A stretch of 64,000 bases of DNA from Limisphaerales bacterium (GCA_965204945.1 OZ242022.1:3554333-3618332); one strand, 5' to 3'. Shown: positions 5,262-17,616, numbered from the stretch's first letter. Numbers and translations are program-made. Notes: a model not told the origin generated them from the letters alone.

Positions 5262-5855
5262 ATGGCGGAAACACCTTCCACAATGTTGTCCCTCGGAACT
5301 TTGGCGCCGAGTTTCTCGTTGCCGAACACCGACGGCCGGATTATTTCTTACGAGGATTATGAAAACGCTAACGGACGCTTGGTCATGTTCCTCTGCAATC
5401 ACTGTCCCTATGTGATTCACATCCAGAACGCGCTCGCCGAGATGGGGCGCGAATTCCTTCCCAAAAACATCGTCATATTCGCCATCTCCGCCAACGACGC
5501 CGAAAAATACCCGGCCGACAGCCCGACAAAAATGAAAGAGACGGCTGAGCGGGTTGGCTACCCCTTCTTTTACTTATACGACGCTGCCCAAGAAGTGGCC
5601 AAAGCCTACCGCGCCGCCTGCACGCCGGATTTCTATCTGTTCAACAAAGAAAACCGCTTGGTCTATCGGGGACAGTTTGACGACGCCCGACCCGGCAACC
5701 AGTTGCCAATCACCGGGCGAGACCTCAAAAACGCCATGAACGCCCTCCTCGAAGGCAAAGACATCTCCCCCGACCAAAAACCTTCGCGAGGCTGCAACAT
5801 CAAATGGAAGCCGGGCAACGAGCCAGACTACTTTGCCTCCCCATCCAGTTCATAA
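5262..5855 (+). CDS. Thioredoxin-fold thiol-disulfide oxidoreductase (AhpC/TSA-like family)
   Basis: 197-aa ORF with CxxC-type motif FLCNHCPYV and the typical context APSFSLPNTDG...GRLVMFLCNHCP. Confidence 0.75.
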   Translation: MAETPSTMLSLGTLAPSFSLPNTDGRIISYEDYENANGRLVMFLCNHCPYVIHIQNALAEMGREFLPKNIVIFAISANDAEKYPADSPTKMKETAERVGYPFFYLYDAAQEVAKAYRAACTPDFYLFNKENRLVYRGQFDDARPGNQLPITGRDLKNAMNALLEGKDISPDQKPSRGCNIKWKPGNEPDYFASPSSS

Positions 5856-10915: not shown

Positions 10916-13024
10916 ATGAGCTTTCTCCAGCCCTTCATACTTTTTGGCCTGCCCTTGGCGCTGCTGCCAATCCTCATCCATTTGCTCAACCGCCTTCGCC
11001 ATCGTCCGCAGCCTTGGGGCGCTATGCAGTTCCTTTTGGCCGCTTCCCGCAGCTCGGTGAACCGCGCCCGGCTGCGCCAGTTTCTCATTCTCCTTTTTCG
11101 CGTGCTGGCCGTTTTAGCCCTCGTCCTCTTTCTTGCGCGCCCACTGGCCGGAGGCTGGTTGGGATGGGCCGTTTCCGCCGCTCCGGACGCCATCTTGCTG
11201 TTGGTGGATCGTTCGGCCAGCATGGAACATTTCTCCGGCGCCGGCGCTGTTTCTAGGCGAGAGAAAGTACTGCAGCTCATGGCCGAATCCGCCCAAAAAT
11301 TTGAGGAAACAAGCCATCTGATCCTCGTCGACTCCGCGCTTCGCCAGCCCCAAGCCCTGCTCAAGGCTGAAAGCCTGCTGGATCATCCCCTCACCAACGC
11401 CACCGACGCCGCTGCCGACATTCCCGCCATGTTGCAATCGGCGCTTTCCTGGCTGTTGGAAAATCAGGCGGGAAACGCCGAAATCTGGATCGGCTCGGAC
11501 ATGCAATCCAGCAACTGGCAAGCCGAAGACGACCGCTGGATATCACTAGCTGGGAAACTGCAGACGCTCCTTCAAACCGTGAAAATCCGACTCCTCGCCG
11601 CCAACGCGAATTCCACCCAAAGCGACGCATCGATAAGCCTCCGCGAACAAACCCGCCAAACCCGCGAAGGATCGCGCGAAGCAGTCTTTACCCTCGACAT
11701 AACCCGATCCGCAGAAAGCGCCTCCCCTCTGTCTGTCGAACAGAACTTGGACGGCATCAGCACGGAACTGCCCTTCGACGCCCAGTCCCAGAAACAACGC
11801 TGGCGACGGCGCGTGAACCTTCCCTCCCAAAACGCCTCCGGTTGGGGATTTTTCTCCACTCCGCCCGACGCCAACAACCGAAACAACGCCGCCTACTTTG
11901 TCTACGGCCAAACGGCCAAACCGGCGGCGCTTGTTCTCTCCTCCGATCCTATCGCCGGCCCCGTTCTCCAAATCGCCGCCGACAATTATCAAACCGATCC
12001 GCCGCAATTCGCCGCCCTGCATTCCCGTTGGAACACCGCCCCAGAATCGCGGCAAGAGACCACCCTTCTAATCTGGCAAAAACAACTTCCCGAAGAAAAG
12101 GAAGCCAAAGCCCTGGAAACATTTGCCAAACAAGGCGGCGTCGTGCTGTTCCTCCCTCCAACAGACTTAGAAAACGCGCGCTCCCCAAACCCGCTTGCGG
12201 AGTCGGACGGCAACCATTTTCACGGCATTCGATGGGAATCAATCGAAACAAACCCCGCCAACGATCCCTTCAAAATAGGCCAATGGGACCAAACTTCAGG
12301 GCCTCTGGCAGACACGGAAGAAGGAATCAACCTGCCTTTGGAACTTCTCAACATTCGCCAACGAAGACGCTTGACCGATCTCCACTCCTCAAACAACGCG
12401 GACAAAAGAACGGACGCATCCGCCTTCGCTTCCTTTCAAGACGGCAATCCGCTCCTAGTCCGAATCGCCATCGGGCAAGGCGCCGCTTGGTTTCTCGCCA
12501 CGTTGCCTCGCCCCGATTGGTCCTCGCTGGCCGATGGAAACGTTCTCATTCCGCTTGTCCAACGTCTCCTTCAAAACAGCGCCCGCCGGCAGGAAAAAAC
12601 AATCTCCGCTATCGCCGGAGAGACGAACCCGGCCATCGAATCAACCACCTGGAATCCCGTTGTCGGACGGAAAAACGCGGACTTTCGATGGCATGCGGGC
12701 ATTTATCAATCCGAAACATCCGCAGAGAATTTCCGGAGCGGAAAAGAATCGCCCGCATGGCTCGCCGTCAATCGATCTCCGCTTGAAGATGACTCTGGAC
12801 AACTCGCCATTGAAGAAATCCGCCCTCTCTTTGGCAATCTTCCGCTGGCCGTGCACCAAAAGGCAAACGAACAAAACGCGCCTCTTCAAAGCGAAGCCTG
12901 GCGCCTTTTCCTACTGGGAATGCTCGTCTTCCTTTTAGGGGAAGGTTGCCTCACACTCCCCTCGTCAAAACCAAAGCCCGTTGCTACCCATCGCCCGCAA
13001 AATCCGATGCAGGCAGAATGCTAA
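10916..13024 (+). CDS. BatA (aerotolerance regulator N-terminal) domain membrane protein
   Basis: The N-terminus MSFLQPFILFGLPLALLPILIHLLNRLRHR matches the BatA N-terminal double-TM signature. A C-terminal TM is present (LFLLGMLVFLLG). It follows MoxR and DUF58, as in Bat-type operons. Confidence 0.75.
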   Translation: MSFLQPFILFGLPLALLPILIHLLNRLRHRPQPWGAMQFLLAASRSSVNRARLRQFLILLFRVLAVLALVLFLARPLAGGWLGWAVSAAPDAILLLVDRSASMEHFSGAGAVSRREKVLQLMAESAQKFEETSHLILVDSALRQPQALLKAESLLDHPLTNATDAAADIPAMLQSALSWLLENQAGNAEIWIGSDMQSSNWQAEDDRWISLAGKLQTLLQTVKIRLLAANANSTQSDASISLREQTRQTREGSREAVFTLDITRSAESASPLSVEQNLDGISTELPFDAQSQKQRWRRRVNLPSQNASGWGFFSTPPDANNRNNAAYFVYGQTAKPAALVLSSDPIAGPVLQIAADNYQTDPPQFAALHSRWNTAPESRQETTLLIWQKQLPEEKEAKALETFAKQGGVVLFLPPTDLENARSPNPLAESDGNHFHGIRWESIETNPANDPFKIGQWDQTSGPLADTEEGINLPLELLNIRQRRRLTDLHSSNNADKRTDASAFASFQDGNPLLVRIAIGQGAAWFLATLPRPDWSSLADGNVLIPLVQRLLQNSARRQEKTISAIAGETNPAIESTTWNPVVGRKNADFRWHAGIYQSETSAENFRSGKESPAWLAVNRSPLEDDSGQLAIEEIRPLFGNLPLAVHQKANEQNAPLQSEAWRLFLLGMLVFLLGEGCLTLPSSKPKPVATHRPQNPMQAEC

Positions 13025-13028
13025 TCCT

Positions 13029-14306
13029 TTAGAAACAGCGGATGACTTCCGGCTTCCGACCCGGCAGTTTGCAAAAGGCCAAGCCTTCGCTCAATCGGTT
13101 TTCCGAGAATTCTTTTGCCATCACTTTTCGGCCGAAAATGCCCTTGAGCGGCGTCAATCCTCGGTCGGATTGATTGCAGGCGAAGCAGATTGCCGTGCCG
13201 ATTTGCGTCATGTAGTCGTAATCTTGGCCTTCAAAATCTTTCGGATTCTGCGAAAGAAGCGTCACCGCGCAACCTCGCTGGCGGGTTTGCGTAATCATTT
13301 CCTGAAGCGAGTCGCTGCGGTTTTTGTGCAGCACACGATTGGCTTCGTCGATCACTAGCAGATGCCGAAGCGTCCGATGCCCATTGCGAAGAGGCGCATC
13401 GTCTCTACTGAGCCAAAAGGCCGCTTCGGCGTCTAAGAGCAGCTGCATAATGAGATTTCGATAGCTCTGCGGAATGTCCGGCGAAAGGGAAAGCGCCCAA
13501 GATTGCGAGAAGAACTTTTCCGGCGGCATGGACGGCTCAAAGACATGAAAACGCGTGAGTTCGCTCAGCACGCTGGAAACGCTGTCGGGATGGGCGTTTT
13601 CTTCTTCCAGAGCGGCGTCATAAGCGGATTGGATGCCGTCTATACTGCGGTCCGCTTTGGAGCGGGCGACGCTTTCCACACAATTCAAAAGACGGTTTTT
13701 CTGCGTAGTGCTTGCCGAGTGCGCCGGCCGGCACAAAGAATCGCGCAAACGGATGCAAGCGCCTTGCAAGGCGGTGTTGCCTCGGCTCGCTTTGGGAAGA
13801 AAGTCCAGCGGAATGGCTTCGCTGCCGACCACCAGCGTATTCACATCGGCAATTTCATTAAAGGCTTTGTGATACTGACATCCGGGAGCAAAGTCTGGTT
13901 TGGGATCAATGTAAAGCAATGGAGCGCGAGTTTTCTGGAGAATTTGACGGATCAAATGAACGCCGATGCGGGTTTTGCCGGTGCCGGTTTTTCCCATGAG
14001 GACAATGTGCGGCGAGCCGGGTCCGTTGAGCGCAAAGTCCACGAATTCCCCTTCCGGATGCGTCTTGCCAACCGGCCCCAAGCGCAATCGAACCGCGCCA
14101 GAAACCTCCGCGGCGGGAGAATCGATGGTTGCCTCCGTTGCCGAGGATTCCGGCAAAAGGTTGGCGAGGCTCTGCGCCAACTTCGCCACTTCACCCTTCG
14201 CCTTTTCCCAATCATCGAGAATCCACTTGCCGCCGCGCGCCCAATGCGCTTCCACCGCCTTGCGAAAGTCATCCAAGCGGTCGTTGGCGTCATCCAAAGC
14301 GTCCAC
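13029..14306 (-). CDS. HerA/FtsK-like (DUF87-type) P-loop ATPase
   Basis: Walker A LMGKTGTGKT, Walker B LLVIDEANRV, then RQRGCAVTLLSQNPKDF, which resembles the HerA/FtsK RKxG...TQRP block. The listed start is GTG. An ATG at 14331 comes into frame if the A5 run (14321-14325) is one base shorter. Confidence 0.7.
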   Translation of the reverse strand: MDALDDANDRLDDFRKAVEAHWARGGKWILDDWEKAKGEVAKLAQSLANLLPESSATEATIDSPAAEVSGAVRLRLGPVGKTHPEGEFVDFALNGPGSPHIVLMGKTGTGKTRIGVHLIRQILQKTRAPLLYIDPKPDFAPGCQYHKAFNEIADVNTLVVGSEAIPLDFLPKASRGNTALQGACIRLRDSLCRPAHSASTTQKNRLLNCVESVARSKADRSIDGIQSAYDAALEEENAHPDSVSSVLSELTRFHVFEPSMPPEKFFSQSWALSLSPDIPQSYRNLIMQLLLDAEAAFWLSRDDAPLRNGHRTLRHLLVIDEANRVLHKNRSDSLQEMITQTRQRGCAVTLLSQNPKDFEGQDYDYMTQIGTAICFACNQSDRGLTPLKGIFGRKVMAKEFSENRLSEGLAFCKLPGRKPEVIRCF

Positions 14307-14400
14307 CGCGTCGCGGTATCTTTTTGCTCATTGGCGCAAGTTGTCCACGTGTTTGACAACGGATCATAAACTAAATCCTATGGCGAAAGGAAATTCCTTT

Positions 14401-14817
14401 TTACTTGTTATCTAAATAAGTTTTCAGGCGAGCTATCTTGCGCTTGAATGCACGATCATTTTTCATATCATGTTCCCAAAATCTAATAACATTCCAGCCT
14501 TTGCCTTTTAAATGCTTGACAACGGATTTATCACGTTTGACGTTGCGGGAGATTTTGCCTTCCCAATAATTTCGATTCGTTAAAGGCATGCGACAATGTT
14601 TTGGACAACCATGCCAAAAGCATCCATCTATAAATACGGCAATCTTTTGTTTTGTAAACACAAAATCAGGGCGGCCATAAAGCGAATAATTCCGTCGCCA
14701 TCCGGTAACTTTTGCAATGCGAAGAAGTTTGATAAAGGCTAATTCTGTCGAGCCATTGCCTTTTGAAGTAATGCTTCCCATAATTTGTGAACGTTTTTGG
14801 CGAGAGACGGTATCCAT
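14401..14817 (-). CDS. vsr: Very short patch repair endonuclease
   Basis: RSQIMGSI...TELAFIKLL...GRPDFVF...IAVFIDGCFWHGCPKHC...NRNYWEGKI.RN..RD are canonical Vsr motifs. The ATG at 14817 is 2 nt after the upstream stop. Confidence 0.9.
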   Translation of the reverse strand: MDTVSRQKRSQIMGSITSKGNGSTELAFIKLLRIAKVTGWRRNYSLYGRPDFVFTKQKIAVFIDGCFWHGCPKHCRMPLTNRNYWEGKISRNVKRDKSVVKHLKGKGWNVIRFWEHDMKNDRAFKRKIARLKTYLDNK

Positions 14818-14819
14818 GT

Positions 14820-15554
14820 TCACAAAACTTCCACCCAAGAGTCGTCAAATTTCAATACGTCTAAAATTTGATCCTGATCCAGCTGATGGGGTTTCCGAAT
14901 CCGAATGGCCAAGCGATTATCCGCAACGGATTCGATGATTGTAAATTGTGATCCATGAGGTTGCCATGTAAAGACATGTGCGTCATCTTTTCTTGAATGA
15001 CCTTGCAAGTTATTTCGCTTGTTCCACTTCCACCAATATTCACCGCTTGGATAGATGACTGTTTCAAATTCAAACACGGCAAGTTCAAGAAGATCATCTG
15101 ATTTTATGAGCACAACGGTGCGAACGTGTTTGTAGAGTTTTCGGATACCAGCGACTCGTTCGTTCCAAATGGAAAGCACCTTTTCTCCCAATTCATTTGG
15201 ATCGCATTCGCTAACCTTTTGGTCTCCAAACGAATAAACGGGTGAGTTTCTGCCCGATATTAAGCGGATTTTTGAAACCGTTGCCGGGCGTTTATTTTTA
15301 ATGGTTTTGGCGCCCCAAGCAGTTTGTTGTAAGATTATATCATCCAAACCAACATTGGAAGGTTTCCATTTAGCTCCAACAAGTCGAGCAAATATCTCCT
15401 CCCAATCTGACCCCTCCAAGCGAGGCGTACCTCGCGATGCTAAGAAATAAACAATTTCCTTTCCCAATTTGAGAGCAAAATCTTTTGGAAAAGTATTGAG
15501 AGGATAAGGTGGTTGGTATTTCTCAACAGTGCGAAGCTTTGGTCTTTTTTCCAT
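14820..15554 (-). CDS. Type II restriction endonuclease candidate (partner of the m5C methyltransferase)
   Basis: 244-aa AT-rich ORF sandwiched between the C5-MTase and Vsr, overlapping the MTase gene by 32 nt. No specific family recognised; the call rests on context. Confidence 0.55.
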   Translation of the reverse strand: MEKRPKLRTVEKYQPPYPLNTFPKDFALKLGKEIVYFLASRGTPRLEGSDWEEIFARLVGAKWKPSNVGLDDIILQQTAWGAKTIKNKRPATVSKIRLISGRNSPVYSFGDQKVSECDPNELGEKVLSIWNERVAGIRKLYKHVRTVVLIKSDDLLELAVFEFETVIYPSGEYWWKWNKRNNLQGHSRKDDAHVFTWQPHGSQFTIIESVADNRLAIRIRKPHQLDQDQILDVLKFDDSWVEVL

Positions 15555-16578
15555 ATTTGACTTTCTCTTCTAATAGAATCATCCGTTTGTGGACAGATTT
15601 TTCTCTTCTGATGAATTCATTGTACACTCCGTTATGCCAGCTTTGAGCTGTGAACAGTTGAAAGATTACAGATTGCGCAACAGGCACGGGAAGACTGTTT
15701 CCAGCTTGCTTTCTTGTTTGGCTGTCATTGCAAACTATCTGGAACGAATCTGGAAAACCTTGAAGTCGAAGCATTTCTCGCGGAGTAAGACGACGTTCGC
15801 CATTCACAAGAAGGTAGTTATAGGAAGCACCAGCTCTCAAGGCGCAGGAAAAGGGGTATGCGCTAATATGCCCACCTTTATTCTCGTGCCAGATCGTGGG
15901 TTCACAAGTAGGCGGATGTTTGGACAATCGCTTCTTTCTGATGTGATCGGAAACGAAGTACTTTTTTGAAACATCCTTTTCCAAGACAGATTCTAGAGAA
16001 ATCATCTCGACGTTTTCATTTGGCCAAACGAGCATTTCTCCTTTCCGCGTCCCAACGATAAAAATACGTTCTCGTTTCTGAGGCAAACCGAAATCTAGAG
16101 CATTCAAAATTCGACAATCGCAGTTGTAACCCAGTTCACTCAGAGATTCCAAAATGCGATTCAGCGTTTCGCCACTATTGTGGCCTTTCAGCGTTTTGAC
16201 ATTCTCAAGAACAAACGCAGCGGGTTTTTTACTTTTGATAATTCGAGCAATCTCGAAAAACAACGTGCCTCGAGCGTCATCGAATCCTCTTCGATGGCCG
16301 ATGATGCTGAACGGTTGGCAGGGAAATCCGGCAAGAAGCAAGTCGTGATTGGGAATTTTTGAGACGCGAATTTTGGAGATGTCCCCGGCCGGTCGCTCGT
16401 TAAAATTCGCTTCGTACGCCTCTTGGCAACCTTCGTCAATGTCGGATGAAAAGACGCACTTGGCATGAACGCCGAGCAAAGAAGCCGCTTTTTCGGCGGC
16501 AATGCGGAAGCCTCCGATGCCGCAGAACAAATCGACGAATCGAATCTTGGTTTTTCGAACACTGCTTTTCATTTCCAA
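15523..16578 (-). CDS. DNA (cytosine-5)-methyltransferase
   Basis: Motif I FVDLFCGIGGF, motif IV GFPCQPFS, motif VI ENV, motif VIII QKRERIFIVG, motif X GNSLPVPV. Confidence 0.95.
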   Translation of the reverse strand: MEMKSSVRKTKIRFVDLFCGIGGFRIAAEKAASLLGVHAKCVFSSDIDEGCQEAYEANFNERPAGDISKIRVSKIPNHDLLLAGFPCQPFSIIGHRRGFDDARGTLFFEIARIIKSKKPAAFVLENVKTLKGHNSGETLNRILESLSELGYNCDCRILNALDFGLPQKRERIFIVGTRKGEMLVWPNENVEMISLESVLEKDVSKKYFVSDHIRKKRLSKHPPTCEPTIWHENKGGHISAYPFSCALRAGASYNYLLVNGERRLTPREMLRLQGFPDSFQIVCNDSQTRKQAGNSLPVPVAQSVIFQLFTAQSWHNGVYNEFIRREKSVHKRMILLEEKVKYGKKTKASHC

Positions 16579-16629
16579 TGGATTACTTGATGTCTGGTTT
16601 CCGTCTGCACGGTGTTTTAGAAAATCCCG

Positions 16630-17616
16630 CTATTTTGAATCGGACTCTGGCAAAATGTTGCGCGCTACCTCAATCACTTTTAAATCCGAATCGCTTGAAG
16701 TTTGCCCGATAAAACCGGTTGGGACGTTGCCGAAAACAGCTCGAGTCGCCTCCATTAAAACGGCGTCTTTGGTTTGCGTTTGCGCCGCCGCGTTGGAAAA
16801 CGCTTGGAGGGTGCGAATGCTGTTCGCTCGATGATTGTTGATTATGGCGAGATGTTTCAACGCTCTGTAGTTGCGGCCGCACCAGATCGTTCCCGTCAGC
16901 AACACAGCCAAAATAACCATCTTTGTGCCGATTTTCTGGAAGATCTGGCCTTGATCCAATCCAGACTCCGTCCAAAACCACATCCCTAAGGCTACCACCA
17001 CGGTGACGAATGCAGCTCCAATCGTTCCCCTCAACCATATTTTGGCGCTCTTTTCCATTTTGCCGGCAACATTCTCGAAGTCTTTCGTAAAGACAGCAGC
17101 GCCTGCCTTTGCTGATGCTTCGCGAGCTTTGGCGATGATCTCTTCCATCTCGGATGCACCTTTCTTAGCGGCGGTCACTGTCTTCTCGACTTCCTTCGCC
17201 GAACGAGTAATCTTCTCGATGTTCTGATCGATATCGCCGCGTTGGCAAGCCAAATAAGCCGCCCACGGAGCTGATGTCTCAAAAAACGGATTCGTCGATT
17301 GTTGAATGGATCTAACGTGGTAAGATTTGTCCGAATTACCAGAGATCCCAAGACTGAATTGATCGAGATGTTCGAAACTCACAGCCACCTGACGAGTGAG
17401 TGCATTGATGTTGTCAATCGTTTTTTCCAAAAGACGTTCGAGAGGCAAATTAATCAATTGCTGGGCAAGTCTGTAGGTGCGCTCAATGTTCGATTGAATT
17501 TCTTCAAAATGGAACTCTCCCCATTCTCGACGCCTGATGAGTCTCGACTGATCGAGATTGAGAATGCGTTGCAGTTCCTTTTTGAGATTGCTGACTTTTT
17601 CCGATTCGTTAGCCAT
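16630..17616 (-). CDS. Hypothetical 2-TM membrane protein with long helical N-terminal domain
   Basis: 328-aa ORF. The N-terminal ~190 aa is charged and helical (repeats of K/E/A). Two hydrophobic helices follow (GTIGAAFVTVVVALGMWFW and MVILAVLLTGTIWCG), then a ~90-aa C-terminal domain. It is the first gene of the RM gene string. Confidence 0.6.
   Translation of the reverse strand: MANESEKVSNLKKELQRILNLDQSRLIRRREWGEFHFEEIQSNIERTYRLAQQLINLPLERLLEKTIDNINALTRQVAVSFEHLDQFSLGISGNSDKSYHVRSIQQSTNPFFETSAPWAAYLACQRGDIDQNIEKITRSAKEVEKTVTAAKKGASEMEEIIAKAREASAKAGAAVFTKDFENVAGKMEKSAKIWLRGTIGAAFVTVVVALGMWFWTESGLDQGQIFQKIGTKMVILAVLLTGTIWCGRNYRALKHLAIINNHRANSIRTLQAFSNAAAQTQTKDAVLMEATRAVFGNVPTGFIGQTSSDSDLKVIEVARNILPESDSK

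Follow-up and report, generated by a model that had tools for sequence, protein, structure and literature searches.

The window analysed here is a 64,000-nucleotide stretch of a Limisphaerales bacterium genome (GCA_965204945.1, OZ242022.1:3554333-3618332), and the locus under study is a run of five open reading frames (ORFs) on its minus strand, between positions 13029 and 17616, in which a restriction-modification (RM) core is flanked by two accessory genes. From the upstream end, these are a gene for a 328-aa protein with two transmembrane (TM) segments (16630-17616; hereafter the 2-TM gene), a C5-cytosine DNA methyltransferase gene (M; ORF 15523-16578, 351 aa), a putative type II restriction endonuclease gene (R; 14820-15554, 244 aa), a gene for the very-short-patch T:G mismatch endonuclease Vsr (ORF 14401-14838, or 14401-14817 from its ATG, which gives 138 aa) and an ORF for a HerA/FtsK-type ATPase (13029-14306, 425 aa from a GTG). 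R overlaps M by 32 nt, the Vsr ATG at 14817 lies 2 nt past the R stop codon, and the ATPase ORF is convergent with the BatA gene (10916-13024), with 4 nt between their ends. The whole string occupies a slot flanked by aroE (shikimate dehydrogenase) on one side and by a MoxR/DUF58/BatA operon on the other. No tRNA gene was found within about 19 kb of the locus, and no integrase gene among the adjacent genes examined, the remainder of the window not having been scanned for integrases. The GC content is 0.41-0.44 over 14250-16250, the M-R-Vsr stretch, versus 0.53-0.62 in the flanks. A previous reading made from the sequence alone (the sequence-only reading) had described the five minus-strand ORFs with these overlaps and spacings, an AT-rich type II 5-methylcytosine (m5C) core that carries its own Vsr and was probably acquired horizontally, and a 328-aa protein with a helical N-terminal domain and two TM helices, and the results presented below agree with it on all these points.

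The M product matched Pfam PF00145 (DNA_methylase) at 7.4e-90 over profile positions 1-322 of 324, TIGR00675 at 6e-90 (302 bits, for a cutoff of 100.65) and the PADLOC MTase_II model at 4e-103. Its alignment with M.HhaI in the PDB (8e-65) covered only residues 8-178 and 254-309, which span motifs I-VIII and IX-X, the target-recognition domain (TRD) giving no alignment to M.HhaI. By these matches, M is unambiguously predicted to be a C5-cytosine methyltransferase with conserved catalytic motifs. The ORF finder placed the M start at TTG 16578, and the comparison with a closely related copy in another genome of the same metagenome series (L033) pointed to a conserved ATG at 16572 (MKSS...), which is most likely the true start. 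Vsr matched TIGR00632 at 4.8e-32 (110.7 bits, above the 97.85 cutoff), the Pfam Vsr family at 9e-17 (61 bits, cutoff 27) and the PADLOC Vsr model at 4e-17, and was 96% identical in amino acid sequence to the Vsr of the related strain L118. Directly past the Vsr stop codon, at 14386-14400, an AT-rich near-palindromic 15-mer, AAAGGAATTTCCTTT, was observed, which is kept in L118 and is too short and too rich in A and T for a canonical terminator. The R family comprises 3810 homologues, mostly 70-79% identical, and R itself gave no sequence match in Pfam, NCBIfam, PADLOC, PHROG or PDB. Its AlphaFold2 model (pLDDT 79.6, pTM 0.75) had as top PDB matches the type II restriction endonucleases HinP1I (E 0.026, TM-score 0.30), DpnI and 3ndh, all of them weak and non-significant (E>=0.026, TM-score <=0.31). 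Members of this family were found directly after an m5C methyltransferase gene, usually overlapping it, in four of four independent contexts (the window, L033, L120 and L121), and it is mainly this conserved position that makes R a putative endonuclease.

The three genes lie in an inserted segment of ~2.26 kb (14368-16627, minus strand, GC ~0.42), which includes a 49-51 nt leader 5' of M and ~33 nt past the Vsr stop codon. Its bounds were given by blastn against the sister strain L001, whose homology with the window ends at 16628 and restarts at 14364; the left junction is identical in L118, and the right end is common with that strain to about 14368. Only chance-level matches were found in a search for direct or inverted repeats around the cassette, and a tblastn search of R against plasmids returned no match. 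In L033, a copy of M-R-Vsr with 94.3% nucleotide identity over window positions 16574-14422 was found in a different neighbourhood, while in L120 and L121 relatives of R (70-73% amino acid identity) lie directly after an m5C methyltransferase gene amid housekeeping genes, with a Vsr gene in L120 and none in L121. None of these three cassettes has either accessory gene beside it. M-R-Vsr is thus a compact, autonomous and mobile RM cassette, and its horizontal acquisition is shown by its foreign composition, by the fact that the closest syntenic relatives (L002, L116 and L001) do not carry it and by the 94% identical copy in the other context of L033. This type II RM system would be the only module of the locus likely to work as a unit: M would methylate cytosine at C5 in a short motif, R would cut unmethylated copies of that motif, and Vsr would nick the T:G mismatches that arise from deamination of 5-methylcytosine, so that repair restores the C.

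The gene at the end of the string has a different origin. The core of the ATPase is a P-loop domain of the HerA/FtsK type, with matches to the C-terminus of DndH (PADLOC, 6.7e-13), to mad8 (1e-17, limited to this core) and to DptH in the PDB (7es4, 2e-7), as well as to Pfam DUF87, AAA_10 and TrwB near threshold. In a search of 5.8 billion proteins, the 120 homologues listed were of 440-534 aa, most of them of 509-525 aa with a few shorter fragments; many of those listed carry a precomputed match to PF08870 (DndE) at the N-terminus, and several are named DndE by JGI. In the alignment, the window ORF lacks columns 1 to ~88, which are present in 14 of 14 full-length relatives. With the full-length member P0001 the core shares 95% identity, and a tblastn search with the 511-aa ATPase of L001 aligned residues 96-511 only, likewise at 95%. 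Therefore, what remains of the ATPase gene (13029-14279) corresponds to residues 96-511 of a 511-aa DndE-HerA/FtsK family, the DndE domain (the first 95 codons) being gone and the HerA/FtsK P-loop domain intact.

The sequence upstream of codon 96 could be traced to another gene. Positions 14364-14274 of the window matched L001 7133-7223 at 91% by blastn, a 91-bp fragment that lies inside a 341-aa gene of L001, after which the alignment continues with the ATPase from codon 96, at 14279 and downwards. By tblastn, a 28-codon relic (14280-14364, minus strand) aligned at 82% over 28 aa to residues 70-97 of this 341-aa protein, which is a truncated DndD: it is the C-terminal half of an ABC ATPase of the DndD/PbeC type, with a match to PADLOC PbeC at 1e-29 (positions 385-676 of 685) and 58% identity to the DndD of strain L003 over residues 355-699 of the latter. 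A three-way sequence comparison and the overlapping blastn segments placed the deletion junction at 14274-14280, on the minus strand, where the 7-nt microhomology CCGCTTG is common to both parental sequences and where the fusion is in frame at ATPase codon ~96. The ATPase ORF thus begins with a dndD-derived stretch, namely the GTG and the first ~9 codons (…DALDDANDRL), the remainder being ATPase-derived, and the deletion took out the equivalent of L001 7224-8284 (1.06 kb). Apart from the relic there is no adjacent DndD, and DndC was found nowhere in the 64-kb window. The ORF is accordingly a 5'-truncated chimera and not a native 425-aa gene. Among the relatives examined, the truncation was seen only in this genome, and it is a recent one. 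The remnant is most likely non-functional, since its DNA-binding domain has been lost and its obligate partners DndD and DndC are gone.

The usual company of the ATPase family was established from 80 metagenomic loci encoding a relative, which were searched with reference proteins. DndD was found immediately upstream in all 39 loci with at least 2.2 kb of upstream sequence and was full length in 36 of them, and of the 28 loci whose upstream sequence reached 3.7 kb or more, 27 had DndC and 25 a small protein. The complete arrangement is seen in L003, which shares the aroE-side synteny of the window and whose ATPase is 67% identical, and in L030: both encode dndC (PADLOC DndC 4e-98), a small Sp-DndD/PbeB-like protein, a ~699-aa DndD/PbeC-like ABC ATPase and a 511-513-aa ATPase. 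The association of a HerA/FtsK-DndE fusion with a DndD-related ABC ATPase is already known as 'clade-3' (PMC10853773), in which nomenclature PbeB is the small protein, PbeC the CxC ABC ATPase and PbeD the DndE cognate. Other N-truncated copies of the ATPase were also found in metagenomes, in visibly eroded operons (L056, L098, L105 and L111).

A side observation on these operons concerns an HNH_2 nuclease gene, present in seven of the 80 ATPase loci, which carries a faint signal of the ScoMcrA sulfur-binding domain and in several operons of the Dnd type directly follows dndC. The gene was located at 5809-6735 in L031/L032, 4215-5069 in L048, 6061-6963 in L056, 2866-3732 in L105, 778-1689 in L111, 1-351 in L040 and 5957-6889 in L001, and also in L106. 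Past it the gene starts vary, with DndD beginning at residue 62, ~224 or ~321-355, or the ATPase at residue 37, 144 or 215. A nuclease that senses phosphorothioate (PT) would be incompatible with PT self-modification. The HNH_2 arrangement could represent either an alternative architecture or a repeated, HNH-associated erosion of the modification operon.

These results bear directly on the proposal of the sequence-only reading that the RM core and its two accessory genes may make up a composite or novel defence locus; in one form of it, the ATPase would translocate DNA for the RM system and the 2-TM protein would act as its effector at the membrane. In its favour are the co-orientation and tight packing of the genes, the repeated capture of HerA/FtsK domains by defence systems (PMC10853773), the matches of the ATPase to PADLOC mad8 and DndH, and the 2-TM-cassette junction that is common to two strains. 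However, the 2-TM gene, M, R and Vsr were found in none of the 80 ATPase loci, and the other components were likewise found in none of 26 loci encoding a 2-TM relative, where no neighbour was conserved; co-occurrence of these components outside this lineage was thus looked for and not found, which is the outcome that the sequence-only reading itself had named as a refutation. Moreover, the ATPase is the product of a deletion that removed its DndE domain, the RM cassette stands alone in other genomes, L118 has a broken RM cassette and a full-length ATPase, and L001 and L116 are without any RM genes. A composite system is therefore very improbable. What survives of the earlier account of the ATPase is its HerA/FtsK P-loop and its tie to anti-phage systems, since it descends from a defence or epigenetic system of the Dnd type; it is neither a complete gene nor an RM partner. 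Two other assignments were also considered and rejected, namely MADS and a Sir2/DUF4297-HerA system, whose partner components are not among the five proteins of the string that were scanned. The published MADS model has mad6 and mad7 as mandatory components (bioRxiv 10.1101/2023.03.30.534895), and the PADLOC scan of these five proteins returned no mad6, mad7, Sir2 or DUF4297, only the mad8 core and generic methyltransferase and Vsr matches.

Other states of the same aroE-batA slot were found in sister strains. L003 carries the intact series of dndC, the small protein, dndD and the ATPase. In L001, the shikimate dehydrogenase gene is followed by a 2-TM gene (345 aa), an HNH_2 gene (310 aa), the gene for the 341-aa protein and the 511-aa ATPase. 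L116, whose 2-TM protein is 87% identical to that of the window, has the 2-TM gene, the HNH gene, a truncated dndD with an in-frame stop and a 511-aa ATPase. L002, the closest relative, with a 94% identical 2-TM protein, retains an HNH gene called only as a 114-aa fragment, a 5'-deleted dndD remnant and an ATPase with an in-frame deletion of ~45 codons at 5539-5546 (equivalent to L001 8778-8904), an independent decay of the same module. Finally, L118 and L119, with a 71% identical 2-TM protein, combine a broken copy of the same RM cassette and its Vsr with a dndD reduced to its last 55 codons and with an ATPase of full length. In these two strains, a NOV_C-domain gene and a 70-aa ORF (L118 7695-9523; L119 3768-5590) replace M residues 100-351 and R residues 1-74, the leftovers of the cassette being M 1-99, R 75-244 and an intact Vsr. 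A recent truncation by HNH insertion was first considered for the 341-aa gene of L001, but is put less strongly here, given that the combination of HNH, half-DndD and ATPase also occurs in distant Chthoniobacter loci. The Dnd-derived genes have thus been eroding independently in several sister lineages. The comparison further suggests that the cassette was inserted once, the later deletions differing by lineage. Additionally, since the flanks of the two cassette-bearing strains are not mutual closest relatives, the cassette may have been exchanged among strains by homologous recombination.

The 2-TM gene belongs to neither of these modules. The alignments with L001, L002 and L116 extend through it, and the match with L001 ends 2 nt past its stop codon (16628), which places it outside the RM cassette and would make it older than the cassette at this locus. 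Its product is all-helical in the AlphaFold2 model (pLDDT 75), and the hydropathy profile shows hydrophobic segments at about 196-216 and 229-247, a TM hairpin after a helical N-terminal region, past which the family has a highly conserved C-terminal block (WCGRxYKALKH...NRHRALS...KDAVLxEATRAVFG). A profile search of 1.84 billion representatives retrieved 3957 relatives at E<=1e-3 and 1170 at E<=1e-30, nearly all of ~330 aa, which puts the size of the family at about 4000 clusters (50% identity). Neither Pfam nor PADLOC offered a matching model; in particular, no SLATT match was obtained in Pfam at E<=1, and SLATT proteins of BFVD appeared only at E 1.6-3.3. A Foldseek search of the model against the PDB gave coiled-coil noise and nothing significant, and a likeness to alpha-pore-forming toxins was not adopted, the matches to MakE (E 0.0055) and AhlB (E 0.94) falling far below the cutoff. 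Against BFVD, the model matched uncharacterised phage proteins, namely A0A8S5TVZ3 (E 1e-9, 23% identity), A0A514DFU2 and a protein of Gordonia phage Lucky10, and the family is therefore present in viral genomes too; a tblastn search of the protein against phages gave no match.

The dN/dS ratio (non-synonymous over synonymous substitution rates) of the 2-TM gene is 0.31-0.35, which is consistent with a functional, fast-evolving gene. When the window was compared with L001, L116 and L118, the gene proved far more divergent between sister strains than its neighbours, with 70-94% amino acid identity of the product and a synonymous divergence (dS) of up to 0.55 versus 0.25-0.39 in the flanking genes, which suggests allelic exchange or fast evolution. 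In the 26 loci, drawn from many phyla, no consistent neighbour was found and no neighbour family occurred in more than six; within three genes, the neighbours include type IIG and type I RM genes, DrmMI-like, IetS and AbiEii-like genes and integrase genes, and also Hsp70 and ribonucleotide reductase. A remote relative (25% identity) was observed on the Vibrio tubiashii plasmid pFP31 (L114; NZ_CP117031.1, 193354-194370), next to genes for Hhe, a HEPN-associated protein, a GIY-YIG protein and AbiH, which are co-oriented single genes with spacers of ~120-500 bp; the layout resembles that of a defence-rich cassette array of the integron type.

It could be proposed, from the maintenance of the 2-TM gene in this lineage while the downstream nuclease module changes (HNH in L001 and L116, RM in the window), that the gene is a constant 'front' component paired with exchangeable nuclease modules, and a nuclease-type gene does lie just downstream in a few distant loci, such as a PLD-SNF2 gene in L005 and the GIY-YIG gene on the Vibrio plasmid. 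However, the downstream genes of the 26 loci form no shared cluster, many of them encoding non-nucleases or lying on the opposite strand, housekeeping neighbours such as ribonucleotide reductase and Hsp70 occur, and both the RM and the HNH-Dnd modules are widespread without a 2-TM gene, so that such a pairing is unlikely. As a weakly supported best guess, the 2-TM gene would be an independent single-gene unit with a stand-alone, membrane-acting role of the exclusion or abortive-infection type. A more specific version, in which the protein is a stand-alone membrane-targeting anti-phage or superinfection-exclusion protein whose gene may mark or stabilise a slot that exchanges nuclease-based defence modules, is put forward only tentatively and is rather doubtful.

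The preferred reading of the locus, to which a probability of about 85% is assigned, is that the RM cassette overwrote the middle of an older, decaying Dnd-type cluster, so that the locus is a palimpsest of defence-gene turnover and the flanking genes are not parts of a composite system. The oldest layer would be a Dnd-type cluster made up of dndC, the small protein, the dndD-like ABC ATPase gene and the dndE-herA/ftsK fusion. A second layer, visible in the sister strains, would be the one in which the 2-TM and HNH_2 nuclease genes are followed downstream by a dndD that lacks its N-terminal part and by an ATPase gene of full length. In the third layer, which is that of the window, the M-R-Vsr cassette would have taken the place of the HNH gene and of the first part of the truncated dndD, after which the 1.06-kb microhomology deletion would have taken the remaining dndD together with ATPase codons 1-95. 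Exchange at the slot would thus proceed through flanking homology and through illegitimate, microhomology-mediated deletion.

Four observations weigh against this reading. First, the cassette junction is common to the window and L118, yet the flanks of the window are nearer to those of RM-less strains. Second, neither the sequence nor the fold of R gave a significant match to any characterised nuclease. Third, the five genes share their orientation and are closely spaced, and a scan for promoters and terminators detected no terminator, for which reasons their co-transcription is possible. Fourth, the truncated ATPase frame is intact over 416 codons, and comparison with the nearest relative gives it a dN/dS of 0.20, based on 10 non-synonymous and 15 synonymous differences, compared with 0.13-0.33 for flanking genes at the same distance and 0.08-0.20 for the ATPase across comparisons; the remnant might conceivably retain a residual function or have gained a new one. 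In fact, the intact frame, the in-frame fusion that supplies a GTG start and the low dN/dS could be taken to mean that the truncated protein was neo-functionalised as a stand-alone HerA/FtsK ATPase after the loss of DndE. However, the dS to the closest relative is 0.06, too small for a dN/dS test of relaxed selection, so that intactness tells little; none of the relatives seen has this truncation, the family otherwise always retains its DndE domain and DndD partner, and the other N-truncated copies sit in the eroded operons mentioned above. Neo-functionalisation is thus quite improbable.

Under the palimpsest reading, the parts of the locus are of known kinds, and the 2-TM family is the sole element with some discovery potential; two abundant uncharacterised families are nevertheless flagged, this one and the R family, for which there is no Pfam model. 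The locus also calls for caution, as genes that are packed tightly in one orientation within a defence-rich region can mimic a novel multi-gene system, while here they would represent successive layers of replacement.

In comparison with known systems, the 2-TM protein shares with SLATT and ClyA-type alpha-pore-forming effectors a helical soluble part, a two-helix membrane hairpin and a sporadic occurrence in partly defence-rich neighbourhoods, but differs from them in the lack of a SLATT match and of a nucleotide cyclase or other sensor partner, and in its own C-terminal motif block. The cassette resembles type II m5C RM systems with Vsr (Dcm/Vsr and the HpaII-type M-R-V order, M.HhaI being the closest solved methyltransferase) in its C5-methyltransferase, the overlapping downstream gene for the putative R and the Vsr gene immediately after it, and in being compact, mobile and foreign in composition, whereas its R is without a sequence-family match and the TRD of its M is not alignable to that of M.HhaI. 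In relation to the DndE-HerA/FtsK fusions ('clade-3' of PMC10853773 and the PbeBCD relatives), the ATPase core has 95% identity with full-length members and its HerA/FtsK domain resembles the C-terminus of DndH/DptH, but the window copy has neither the DndE domain nor the partner genes, and would be the remnant of a member rather than an intact one. Finally, unlike what is seen in hot-spot turnover at fixed slots, neither a tRNA gene nor terminal repeats were found at this slot, nor an integrase among the adjacent genes examined; as in such hot spots, close strains carry different cargo between aroE and batA, deletions end sharply, and the cassette junctions that strains share do not follow the similarity of their flanks. 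The locus and its relatives thus offer, within one natural population, an unusually clean series resolved to the base, which would lead from an intact Dnd-type operon through an HNH variant and an RM insertion to a microhomology deletion, and which could be used for studying the turnover of defence slots without integrases.

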